Source of the DNA: a virus
Length of the DNA: 58,445 nucleotides
Strand: one strand, 5' to 3'
UHGV virus genome: UHGV-0021275
Shown: piece by piece, positions 9,009-12,381 of the stretch
Position numbering within the stretch: the first letter of the stretch is position 1
Layout: every line of letters begins with the position of its first letter
Program-made: the position numbers and the translations under genes
Notes under the pieces: generated by a model
Databases searched by the model: none
What the model was told of the DNA's origin: nothing
Seen by the model: the letters and a program-made list of their open reading frames with translations, nothing else

Positions 9009-9293
9009 TTAATCAATCGCCAATAAATACTCCTCCAACCTGCGGGTATCCTCATTGTCGATACCCGCTTTAAATTCCTCCTGTATAGCCTCCCATCGCA
9101 TCACCAGACCCATACAAGGCACTGGCAAATACTGCTGCTTTTCATCCGGCGGTAACGCCGCATGAGCTGGAGAACCGCTAATAACACAGTCCTGCGGTGA
9201 CAACCCATACAGAAAACAAATAGCGTGAGGTGGCACGCTGACCACCTCACCTTTACGACCTTTAACTTTGTTCAACCGGATCACGTATTTCAT
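9009..9293 (-). CDS. Hypothetical protein
   Basis: Internal ATG of track ORF 9009-9344 preceded by GGGGGAA. 94 aa, overlaps the end of the primase gene by ~30 nt. Confidence 0.4.
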   Translation of the reverse strand: MKYVIRLNKVKGRKGEVVSVPPHAICFLYGLSPQDCVISGSPAHAALPPDEKQQYLPVPCMGLVMRWEAIQEEFKAGIDNEDTRRLEEYLLAID

Positions 9294-12200
9294 GTGATTC
9301 CCCCGGTAATCGTGGAGCACTTTCCGCCAGGCTACTGACGTCAAAGTCCTTTAAATTGAACACATATGTGCGTGCAGGCGTGACGTGCGAAAATGCTTTA
9401 ACACCACGACCCAGCCGCACTTTCACGAAACCCTTACCACCATCAGCCAGCGCATCATAGACACCCTCTGCTGCCAGTTCCGCAAGAATATTGCGCGGTG
9501 TGATCGTTCGCTCACGACACCAGTCATGCAATGCAGCACAACGAACATATGCCGTATTCGAATCCGCTTCGATACGCACATCCACATTCCCCGTTTGTGG
9601 TGGGAAACGCAGCACATATGAATCACTATGCAGCGGCATATCGCCATTCGTTTTAACCTGACGGTCTTTCGACGCAACGATAAGCGTGTCACGCAGACGA
9701 TCTGATAAGAAGTCAGATAACAAACTAACACCGTCTGATTTAATGTTGAACAACGTACGACGCTGCTGGTTACGCGACTGGACTGCGAAACGTTCCAGTG
9801 CATCCATATCAAACGGCAGCAGTCCCATTCGTTTCGCCATACGGCCAGCAACCATTGCAGCTGCTATAGCCATATTCCAGAAACGTTCATCCTGCGCTTC
9901 TGTATATCGGGCCAGCGCGTTATCCAGAATATCCGGCAATTTCTCTATTGCCTCCGGGTTATCCAGTAACCGCTGCACAAAGTACGGACCTGCTTGTCCA
10001 TAATTGCGGCCCATGATACGTTCCATTTCACGGGCTTCCGCTATCAGCTCGCTATCCTGGCTATGATCACCGACATAGATTTCCAGCGCACGCTTAACCT
10101 CAGCATCACGTGTCTGCAAATATGGTGTCATCGCATCACAGATTGAATGGTTTGCCGTCATGATCGTTATCGTGCGCCATTCAAGACTTGTCTGTAAGCC
10201 GCCTTCGGCTTTCATACGGCCTTTCTCACAGCCCTCTGATATCATAAATACCAGGTCAGACAGGTCCTTCGGTGTCATCTTTGTGACTTCATCAATGCAC
10301 AATGGCAAGTTGCGCATAAGACCTGCGACCAGACCTTTACTGTTGTCAGTATCCTGTGCTCGCTGCAATAACTGTTCCGGGTGACCCCATACACTGTTAA
10401 CAGCACGCATCGCTGTAGTCTTACCAGAACCAGACGGCCCCCACAGACACGCAATACTGTTCTGTACAGAACCCGGTGCGAACTCCATCAATATCGCTCC
10501 GAACGCCATGCACAGTGCCAGCTGACCACCATACATATTATTCCTGTGATAAAACTCCGGTATGCGTTTCCACACTTCCAGAGAACCCATCGCAGAAAAT
10601 CTCTTCACTGCGAACTTCTCCAGTGCAGGTTTTAGGATAACCGTTGTCGGTAATGTACCTGGCATAAACAACGTGCTACCAATGGAGAAGCCCTGTGTAC
10701 GAACACCTTCGGTAGAACGCGCTTCCGTCCAGCCAAACTGTTCCGTGACTCTGACACCAGGAATTTTCCGTTGAAGATGTGCTATCAACGAACGCATAAA
10801 CGTGTTCCTGCTTTCCTCTAAATGCGGCAATACTGCCAGCTGATTGTTCACACACCACTTTGAAAATGCCGCTGTGGAATTTTGTTCCTCAGCAAGCATC
10901 TGTGCCTGTCGTGATTGCCCATTAGGCTCGACAATCTGCCAGATATAAATTGTCTGTAATTGTGCGAAACCATGATGCACTTCCTGTTTGCCAACCAGAT
11001 ATACACACTGCGGCAATACCAGCATCTTCGTGAATTTTGTATCGCCGTTCTCGTCCTTTTCCGCTTTGATACGATATATCCCTTCACCATCAACCTGCTC
11101 AAATCCCTGAATCTTTGGCATAGCGATACTGGTGACCTGCGGCAATGGCGCAGCAACGGCTTTCCCCTGTGCAACCGGGGCCGCTGTAGCCGTTGCTACA
11201 GGCTGTGCCGGAACGACAGAAGGCGGTGTATGCGTAATATTATGTTGCGATCGTCCGAGTTCGGCAGGTGTGGTGATCTTCCCATAGTGAGGACACGCCA
11301 CACATTTTCCCGGACATTTCCGGTTAAATCCTTCACACGACTCCGGGCCACCGGGTAGCCCGTTTACATAACGGAACTTTTGAATGAACTGCTGTTCATT
11401 GAAACGGCGAGTATCTTTTGCAGAAATCACACGTGCGGCGACCTCGCCATCACGACAGCACTTCATTACTGTCATCATAGCGAACCATACTGGTTCGGCT
11501 TCCAGCCCAGCTTCTCGTACCTGTTGACACCCCTGCAGAATTAGCAATGGATCTTTATCCTTTGCCTCTTCCATGACATGCCCCATTGCAGCACGAAAAG
11601 CGGGGTTATTCATCATGGCACGAATATTCCCCGATGCTGCGACTGGCAGGTGCTGTGCCGGGGAATTGCCTTTACCTGTCGGCTGCAGTCCATGCGTGCT
11701 CATATACCGTGACAGTATTCCGGCCACGACTGTCGGCGTAGTTTCTTCACCTCGCGCAACAGTAGTAACCGCCGCACCGCTCGGTCCATAAGCAGGCTTC
11801 CAGTTTGTCGTACCAACCGGACGCAGAATACTGGCAGCATCCATTGTACGACTGGGGTCCGCCAGAACCCCCGCATGAGTCACTACTGCATCCAGTGCCG
11901 CCGATAACAGCCTCCACTGCGCCGCTGACACATCCTGCATAAAACGCCAGTACACATGGATACCACCACCGGAATTAACGATATATGGTTGTGGCATACC
12001 GGTACGACTGCAGAACTCCATTAAGCCCGTAACAGCTGCACTTTGTGACGGATATTTCTTGGGGTCGGCACCAACATCGAGGTCCAGCCATAACGCACGC
12101 ATGGCATACGCATTCGCCTGCGTACGGAAAACTTTCTTCACTGCACCGTTCTTATCAAGACGCCCGCCGGGGTCGTCATGCCACCCCTGCTGGAAGCCTG

Positions 12201-12381
12201 ATAATGCGAAGAATGCGTCGTAACCCTTAGCCGCTGCTTTTCCTACAACGGTCGCAAGTTCTTCATGTGACGTTACAGCACGCTGTGCTAATCGCCCGGT
12301 ACGTGGGTCAACTGCGACAGCACAGAAATATTTTGCGGATGCAGGGAGCACACTCTGTAAGAAGTTTAATATTGTGCTCAT
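9262..12381 (-). CDS. Bifunctional primase-polymerase (AEP-type) fused to a D5/P4-alpha-like helicase
   Basis: 1039 aa. N-terminal LWLDLDVGAD ... GGGIHVYWRF (primase-polymerase acidic and His motifs), a Cys cluster CPGKCVACPHYGK (zinc ribbon), then Walker A LWGPSGSGKTTAM and Walker B LCIDEV. Confidence 0.8.
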   Translation of the reverse strand: MSTILNFLQSVLPASAKYFCAVAVDPRTGRLAQRAVTSHEELATVVGKAAAKGYDAFFALSGFQQGWHDDPGGRLDKNGAVKKVFRTQANAYAMRALWLDLDVGADPKKYPSQSAAVTGLMEFCSRTGMPQPYIVNSGGGIHVYWRFMQDVSAAQWRLLSAALDAVVTHAGVLADPSRTMDAASILRPVGTTNWKPAYGPSGAAVTTVARGEETTPTVVAGILSRYMSTHGLQPTGKGNSPAQHLPVAASGNIRAMMNNPAFRAAMGHVMEEAKDKDPLLILQGCQQVREAGLEAEPVWFAMMTVMKCCRDGEVAARVISAKDTRRFNEQQFIQKFRYVNGLPGGPESCEGFNRKCPGKCVACPHYGKITTPAELGRSQHNITHTPPSVVPAQPVATATAAPVAQGKAVAAPLPQVTSIAMPKIQGFEQVDGEGIYRIKAEKDENGDTKFTKMLVLPQCVYLVGKQEVHHGFAQLQTIYIWQIVEPNGQSRQAQMLAEEQNSTAAFSKWCVNNQLAVLPHLEESRNTFMRSLIAHLQRKIPGVRVTEQFGWTEARSTEGVRTQGFSIGSTLFMPGTLPTTVILKPALEKFAVKRFSAMGSLEVWKRIPEFYHRNNMYGGQLALCMAFGAILMEFAPGSVQNSIACLWGPSGSGKTTAMRAVNSVWGHPEQLLQRAQDTDNSKGLVAGLMRNLPLCIDEVTKMTPKDLSDLVFMISEGCEKGRMKAEGGLQTSLEWRTITIMTANHSICDAMTPYLQTRDAEVKRALEIYVGDHSQDSELIAEAREMERIMGRNYGQAGPYFVQRLLDNPEAIEKLPDILDNALARYTEAQDERFWNMAIAAAMVAGRMAKRMGLLPFDMDALERFAVQSRNQQRRTLFNIKSDGVSLLSDFLSDRLRDTLIVASKDRQVKTNGDMPLHSDSYVLRFPPQTGNVDVRIEADSNTAYVRCAALHDWCRERTITPRNILAELAAEGVYDALADGGKGFVKVRLGRGVKAFSHVTPARTYVFNLKDFDVSSLAESAPRLPGESHEIRDPVEQS

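Follow-up and report, generated by a model that had tools for sequence, protein, structure and literature searches.

A predicted primase-helicase with a four-cysteine helical domain, encoded by a phage-like element of Escherichia coli

The virus genome UHGV-0021275, a stretch of 58,445 nucleotides analysed here as a whole and called the window below, represents a ~59-kb Escherichia coli phage-like element. On its minus strand lies an open reading frame (ORF) of 1039 amino acids (aa) running from an ATG at 12381 to a stop codon at 9262-9264. An earlier note on this DNA had read the gene as a single-polypeptide primase-polymerase with a zinc ribbon and a D5-like helicase, next to an iteron origin candidate. 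The single polypeptide, with an archaeo-eukaryotic primase (AEP) at the N-terminus and a P-loop helicase at the C-terminus, was borne out by the motifs, the profiles and the Walker A and B sequences, but the middle domain, the family of the helicase and the position of the origin had to be revised. The features of the gene are as follows, where pLDDT is the predicted local distance difference test score.

9262..12381, minus strand: complete gene, 1039 aa plus stop, a fusion of AEP primase, four-Cys helix bundle and DUF927 helicase (from the ORF list and homologues)
11677..12381, minus strand: AEP catalytic domain, aa 1-235
12070..12090, minus strand: AEP motif I, WLDLDVG (D100 and D102, metal ligands), invariant in 176/176 relatives and aligned with the LigD-Pol DxD motif
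11947..11973, minus strand: AEP motif II, SGGGIHVYW (H142), with S137, G138, G140, H142 and Y144 invariant in 176/176
11797..11862, minus strand: AEP motifs III and IV, ADPSRTMDAAS-ILRPVGTTNWK (D175, D181, R187, N193), from conservation counts
11566..11676, minus strand: linker 1, aa 236-272, predicted disordered (pLDDT <50 at aa 238-254 and 264-271)
11248..11565, minus strand: all-helical bundle, aa 273-378, with four invariant Cys (C285, C349, C360, C363), PriCT-2 / PriL-CTD-like
11092..11247, minus strand: linker 2, aa 379-430, Ala/Pro/Val/Gln-rich and of variable length (from composition; alignment columns ~480-560 are gappy and unconserved)
10522..11091, minus strand: N-terminal domain of the DUF927 helicase module, aa 431-620, boundaries approximate (from the profile alignment, which starts at 8tch residue 30, and Pfam DUF927)
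9982..10521, minus strand: P-loop ATPase core, aa 621-800, with Walker A at 648-656 (K654), Walker B at 694-700, N744 and R764
9265..9981, minus strand: helical lid and C-terminal domain, aa 801-1039, a putative DNA-recognition domain (from position only)

A database search returned 32 full-length homologues of 860-1053 aa (best E = 0, and 10/32 with E below 1e-190). A profile of aa 1-390, searched against a library of 1.84 billion proteins, matched 3,667 cluster representatives at E<=1e-30 and 17,510 at E<=1e-3, and nearly all of the 150 matches listed for it were 750-1050 aa long. Given the full-length homologues and the thousands of profile matches, this ORF is not a chance one. Among the PHROGs, the unannotated family phrog_25314 covered aa 40-970 (E 4e-101) and phrog_8841, 'DNA primase/helicase', covered aa 570-858 (E 6e-37). 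The identical protein is present at NCBI as 'DUF927 domain-containing protein [Escherichia coli]', and dozens of assemblies of E. coli isolates contain it, in every case on a separate contig of 58-62 kb. At the DNA level, the gene found no match by megablast against phages and none by blastn against complete E. coli genomes.

The sequences quoted in the earlier note, namely LWLDLD (aa 97-102), GGGIHVYW (aa 138-145), the Cys cluster and Walker A and B, are all present in the 1039-aa ORF. Residue conservation was counted over 176 aligned relatives, and the N-terminal domain was compared with the motifs of the AEP superfamily. Motif I (hhhDhD/E) is provided by D100 and D102 in every relative, motif II (sxH) occurs as SGGGIH, with S137, G138, G140 and H142 in all of them, and motif III (hD/E) is represented by D175 (174/176) and D181 (175/176). 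R187 is found in 176/176 and N193 in 153/176, with His instead in 22. Arg followed by a coupled Asn six residues further on is what R187 and N193 present, and it is this motif IV, a flange Arg and an Asn with R-x5-N spacing, that defines the PrimPol-PV1 supergroup (PMC5862659). The supergroup includes the all3500-like and PrimQH families, with architectures in which an AEP is followed by PriCT or a zinc-binding domain, DUF927 and a winged helix (PMC5862659). The His of motif II is kept here, unlike in PrimQH and PrimHYQ, and any assignment to one of these families is putative.

The AEP catalytic fold was also found in this domain. The family profile gave marginal matches to PDB sequences, 6zp9 (the PrimPol of phage S-2L) at E 0.006 and LigD-Pol at E 0.012, with motifs I and II aligned. 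A word-based homologue search with the N-terminal profile returned 6 proteins, of which P0179 was the useful one; this protein exceeds the Pfam RepB_primase threshold, and hhalign aligned the N-terminal profile to it with all motifs in register (98.5% probability, E 2.4e-15). The hhalign probability for S-2L PrimPol was 91.9%. We conclude that the N-terminal domain is an AEP primase(-polymerase), with strong evidence from fold and profiles and with a predicted activity.

The middle of the protein holds cysteines at 285, 349, 356, 360 and 363, and in all 176 relatives the first, second, fourth and fifth of these are invariant, whereas C356 is not. The zinc ribbon reading is contradicted by this domain. 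Two knuckles on beta-hairpins would be expected in a ribbon, while here there is one CxxC, the remaining two Cys lie 64 and 11 residues upstream on separate helices, and the region (aa ~273-378) is predicted purely helical with pLDDT 93-97. Its structural neighbours are weak, and include photolyases and cryptochromes (scores 6.0-4.2), an Fe-S photolyase (4.9), the chain of African swine fever virus (ASFV) C962R, which contains a PriCT2 domain (4.3), PriX (4.2), the human and yeast PriL Fe-S domain (3.9, 3.8 and 3.3), the RepB' helix bundle (3.7) and NrS-1 (3.1). In BFVD, the top six matches belonged to the phage family itself, and below them came weak matches to entries named 'Primase C-terminal 2' and to D5-like primases. 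Pfam PriCT_2 (PF08707) gave no match for the window protein, and 3/23 family members matched it weakly (best E 0.079). The PriCT-2 region of S-2L has none of the four cysteines, and an hhalign comparison of the Cys domain with it detected no sequence similarity. A search of the PDB with the Cys-domain profile matched solely the lectin PPL3 (E 0.076), which was judged spurious. The predicted model suggests that the bundle may be an accessory domain of the PriCT/PriL-CTD kind with a conserved four-Cys metal site, and a putative relative of PriCT-2. A four-cysteine helical domain is not described as such for the RSF1010 RepB' primase (3h20) or in the PrimPol-PV1 survey (PMC5862659).

Most likely, the four invariant cysteines hold a structural metal centre, either Zn or Fe-S. 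To a simple structural Zn(Cys)4 site, in a fold other than a zinc ribbon, we would give about an even chance. Four invariant cysteines including one CxxC would suit such a site, and Zn-binding domains occur at the same position in some AEP fusions (PMC5862659); however, there is a single CxxC knuckle with the other two ligands coming from separate helices, and the domain is all-helical, with the Fe-S-containing PriL-CTD and the FeS-BCP photolyases among its neighbours. The spacing of the cysteines also argues against Zn, as C-63-C-10-C-2-C is similar to the pattern C-74-C-11-C-7-C found at the [4Fe-4S] site of the monomeric Nanoarchaeum equitans primase (PMC10250227). That primase, NEQ395, carries an AEP and a helical regulatory domain comparable to PriL-CTD on one chain, as does the protein described here (PMC10250227). 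We put forward, tentatively and as a less probable reading, that the four cysteines could ligate a [4Fe-4S] cluster; in that case the bundle would correspond, in compact form and in a bacterial virus, to the PriL C-terminal Fe-S domain.

The 52 aa of linker 2 connect the primase half to the helicase half, in which Walker A reads GPSGSGKTT (aa 648-656) and Walker B reads LCIDEVT (aa 694-700); K654, N744 and R764 are invariant in the family alignment. Pfam DUF927 (PF06048) matched aa 522-732 with 72.2 bits against a cutoff of 22.6, and the other P-loop matches were generic and sub-threshold. Searching with the single sequence found the 'pathogenicity island protein' 8tch of a Staphylococcus aureus pathogenicity island (SaPI) at E 3.5e-8 and the SCCmec helicase Cch (5dgk) at E 9e-7, while the family profile brought these to E 3e-31 for SaPI Rep 8tch (chain residues 30-483 of 580) and E 1.5e-26 for Cch. 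Both are homologous to the C-terminal ~470 aa of our protein, with Walker A and B, N744 and R764 conserved, and the alignment to them ends at about aa 880. Judged by its sequence, the helicase belongs to the DUF927 / Cch / SaPI-Rep family. Cch has no fused primase (PMC7581432), unlike the protein here.

A D5-type helicase was considered and rejected: D5_N, Pox_D5 and Primase_Cterm were all missing from the Pfam matches at E<=1, and Cch and SaPI Rep are strongly supported homologues. Because no D5-type model matches, 'D5-like' can be kept as a functional analogy only and is wrong as a family name. The DUF927 helicases (Cch, SaPIbov1 Rep) and those with D5_N/Primase_Cterm (Cch2, SaPI5 Rep, vaccinia D5) are distinct families (PMC7581432). 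Vaccinia D5, mpox E5 and ASFV C962R combine D5_N with a superfamily 3 helicase, whereas our protein matches none of the three D5-type models, and the S-2L PrimPol (PDB 6zp9; PMC8065100) has a VapE/VirE-type ATPase in place of DUF927. S-2L, C962R and D5 are built on the same primase-helicase logic but use other helicases.

The gene is the last one in a long leftward replication operon, which also encodes a small helix-turn-helix (HTH) protein and the following products.

20206-21141, leftward operon: ParB
19645-20202, leftward operon: 3'-5' exonuclease
17381-19648, leftward operon: family-A DNA polymerase (PolA)
16661-17365, leftward operon: another exonuclease
14457-16160, leftward operon: SNF2-family helicase
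12680-13996, minus strand: 438-aa protein with a Q/P-rich C-terminal half

The order PolA - PD-(D/E)XK - SNF2 - ... - AEP/DUF927, converging on a gene for a giant structural protein of ~2,300 aa, is kept in relatives. We found it in two distant ones, at 27% identity on a contig of the marine TARA metagenome and at 38% on a Logan contig assembled from SRA data, and also in E. coli pSTEC648_2 (a circular 60.5-kb record deposited as a plasmid, CP061838.1) and Pseudomonas phage Rollin. The 438-aa protein had no Pfam, PHROG or PDB match; in its slot beside the primase-helicase gene, the TARA relative has a weak Enc34-type single-stranded DNA-binding protein, and the 438-aa protein is a candidate for the single-stranded DNA-binding protein of the replisome. 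The earlier statement that no separate DnaG or DnaB is present holds for every window ORF scanned, the SNF2-family helicase being a separate gene, and no primase or ring-helicase candidate other than our protein was found in the window. No integrase was found among the ORFs scanned. From the identical protein's separate 58-62-kb contigs, the circular relative, ParB, a HigBA toxin-antitoxin pair and this lack of an integrase among the scanned ORFs, the element looks like a phage-plasmid or a carrier-state phage rather than an integrated prophage.

The iteron origin had been placed adjacent to the gene, and this was not confirmed. No iterons were found within several kb of the gene with two seed sizes and TRF, the region 7500-13000 contains no repeat family beyond two-copy matches at chance level, and TRF reported no tandem repeat within 6 kb. 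The only iteron-like array of the window is at 33685-34370, ~21 kb from the gene, and it holds 9/17 of the TTGAGCA copies of the window. Six copies on the plus strand (33685-33769) are followed by an AT-rich palindromic tract (33987-34032) and three copies on the minus strand (34084-34370), and TGCGCA-type repeats continue past the array to 34832. The array coincides with a divergent strand switch and with the minimum of the cumulative GC skew, and an origin or regulatory region is plausible there. Phage N15 RepA and phage P4 alpha are single multifunctional proteins of a temperate phage or plasmid-prophage, combining primase, helicase and origin binding; their origins are within or beside the gene, which was not seen for the gene studied here.

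From these results we consider it likely, with good confidence, that the product of the gene serves as primase-helicase to a ~59-kb E. coli replicon that is phage-like and probably a phage-plasmid, and this protein is possibly also the initiator of the element. The last ~600 aa, a DUF927-family ATPase, would form a hexameric ring and unwind DNA 3'->5', by analogy with the self-loading Cch and SaPI Rep; Cch, a relative of SaPIbov1 Rep, is a hexameric 3'->5' helicase (PMC7581432). The AEP catalytic domain would be tethered to this ring by the flexible Ala/Pro-rich linker of ~50 aa. If it behaves as PriL-CTD, PriX, PriCT and the pRN1 bundle do, the helix bundle would bind the template and, for the synthesis of a dinucleotide, the initiating nucleotide, and the primers would then be handed to the family-A polymerase of the element (17381-19648), to be extended with the help of the separate 3'-5' exonuclease (19645-20202). 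SaPI Rep and Cch2 carry C-terminal origin-binding domains (PMC7581432), and purely by analogy with the position of these domains the last ~160 aa may have an origin-binding role here.

Several points weigh against this proposal. The Pfam scan at E<=1 found no primase family at the N-terminus, Prim-Pol PF09250 included, and neither did the NCBIfam scan find a primase model there. For this protein and for every other member of the family, the AEP activity is a prediction from sequence and fold. The last ~160 aa gave no sequence match and no DNA-binding fold could be recognised in them from the sequence. In SaPIs the origin consists of iterons that directly follow rep (PMC7581432), and this signature of an initiator was not found at our gene. 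Finally, a 3'->5' ring helicase rides on the leading-strand template, which leaves the service of the lagging strand by a tethered primase unexplained. Concerning the first of these points, the earlier note had proposed HMM searches with Prim-Pol PF09250, D5_N and P-loop helicase models and had regarded the lack of a primase match as fatal to its reading. The P-loop part was found (DUF927, 72 bits) whereas the other two models did not match, and such a test is too weak here, since the crystallised S-2L PrimPol has no Pfam AEP match either, only VapE. Pfam silence is thus normal in this corner of the AEPs.

Other roles were weighed against that of a primase-helicase. A stand-alone replicase, meaning a true primase-polymerase whose AEP domain would serve for copying the genome as well as for priming, as has been proposed for S-2L and shown for NrS-1, seems improbable to us. 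AEPs commonly extend primers in vitro, but in the window, as in all syntenic relatives, the same operon supplies a family-A polymerase and a proofreading exonuclease, so that another polymerase is at hand for replication. In S-2L the PrimPol is the sole possible polymerase (PMC8065100) whereas this element encodes PolA, and a sole replicase in the style of S-2L is therefore disfavoured. The fixed position of the gene at the end of the replication operon, even across distant relatives, and the failure to find any other primase both speak against an enzyme for repair, damage tolerance or action against foreign DNA, for which ASFV C962R and the primase-polymerase of Thermus ICETh2 are precedents; some AEP-helicase proteins are reported to be dispensable for replication (PMC10516667, PMC7693054), and yet we hold this role to be very improbable here. 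The PADLOC defence models gave no match.

More weight is due to the possibility, in our opinion still a doubtful one, that the protein is mainly an origin-specific initiator for maintenance in plasmid mode, comparable to RSF1010 RepB', RepA and RepC combined or to SaPI Rep. Instead of priming generally at the fork, it would then open a single defined origin and prime there. In its favour, the AEP domain shows ties to the RepB' primases, and the homologues of the helicase module include self-loading initiator helicases. The identical protein is always on its own 58-62-kb E. coli contig, ParB and HigBA suggest an extrachromosomal prophage, and an iteron-like array does exist at 33685-34370. However, there are no iterons inside or beside the gene, and a role as initiator is compatible with priming at the fork. 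With no other primase present, the protein presumably does both, initiation and fork priming.

Some further observations concern the neighbourhood. The ORF at 2-4963 on the plus strand, of more than 1653 aa and interrupted by the start of the window, converges on the lysis cassette and the replication operon; its homologues are 2270-2327 aa long and have the Pfam LPD38/LPD39 'large polyvalent protein' domains. The toxin-antitoxin pair, a HigB-like toxin at 8003-8341 (Pfam E 1e-26) and an HTH antitoxin at 7690-7992, both on the minus strand, lies ~1 kb downstream of the primase-helicase gene, past two small ORFs. Upstream of the pair (8398-8458) there are a perfect 10-nt inverted repeat at 8437-8458 and a duplicated CCATAACATTA, which together are probably an operator. 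Two terminator-like GC hairpins with T-runs, seen by eye, bracket the cassette, one at 7600-7627 after the lysis genes of the plus strand and the other at 8520-8550 between higB and the small ORF 8577-8930.

Records of the relatives also deserve comment. In the Rhizobium phages RHph_TM27A/B, TM29 and TM3_14A (~60.9 kb), the homologues are labelled 'putative integrase protein', which looks like a mis-annotation. The homologous gene of pSTEC648_2 (CP061838.1, 32464-35642) is annotated as two overlapping coding sequences, one of 866 aa ('DUF927') and one of 194 aa (hypothetical), and tblastn covers it in two pieces, while in the other E. coli members the protein is unbroken and ~1040 aa long. The split in this record probably reflects a frameshift or faulty assembly.

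The architecture of AEP, helix bundle and DUF927 was already described in 2018, and such fusions occur in other phages and in plasmids. The gene is an under-annotated further member; what is novel is limited to its four invariant Cys in a bundle of PriL/PriCT type, a mildly interesting point. Thousands of relatives are labelled merely 'DUF927 domain-containing protein' or 'hypothetical', with the N-terminal 390 aa invisible to Pfam. Once the AEP and the helix bundle are recognised, a widespread lineage of ~55-62-kb phages, among them an element repeatedly found as its own contig in E. coli isolates, gains a functional assignment for its replication initiator or primase. The invariant Cys4 site is a cheap and well-defined target for biochemistry. 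Should it hold a [4Fe-4S] cluster, these would be the first bacteriophage primases with a PriL-like Fe-S domain fused in cis to an AEP and a replicative helicase, in a family that is very large and unannotated, with thousands of 50%-identity clusters, and they would offer a small single-chain model from a bacterial virus for the disputed role of Fe-S in primases.

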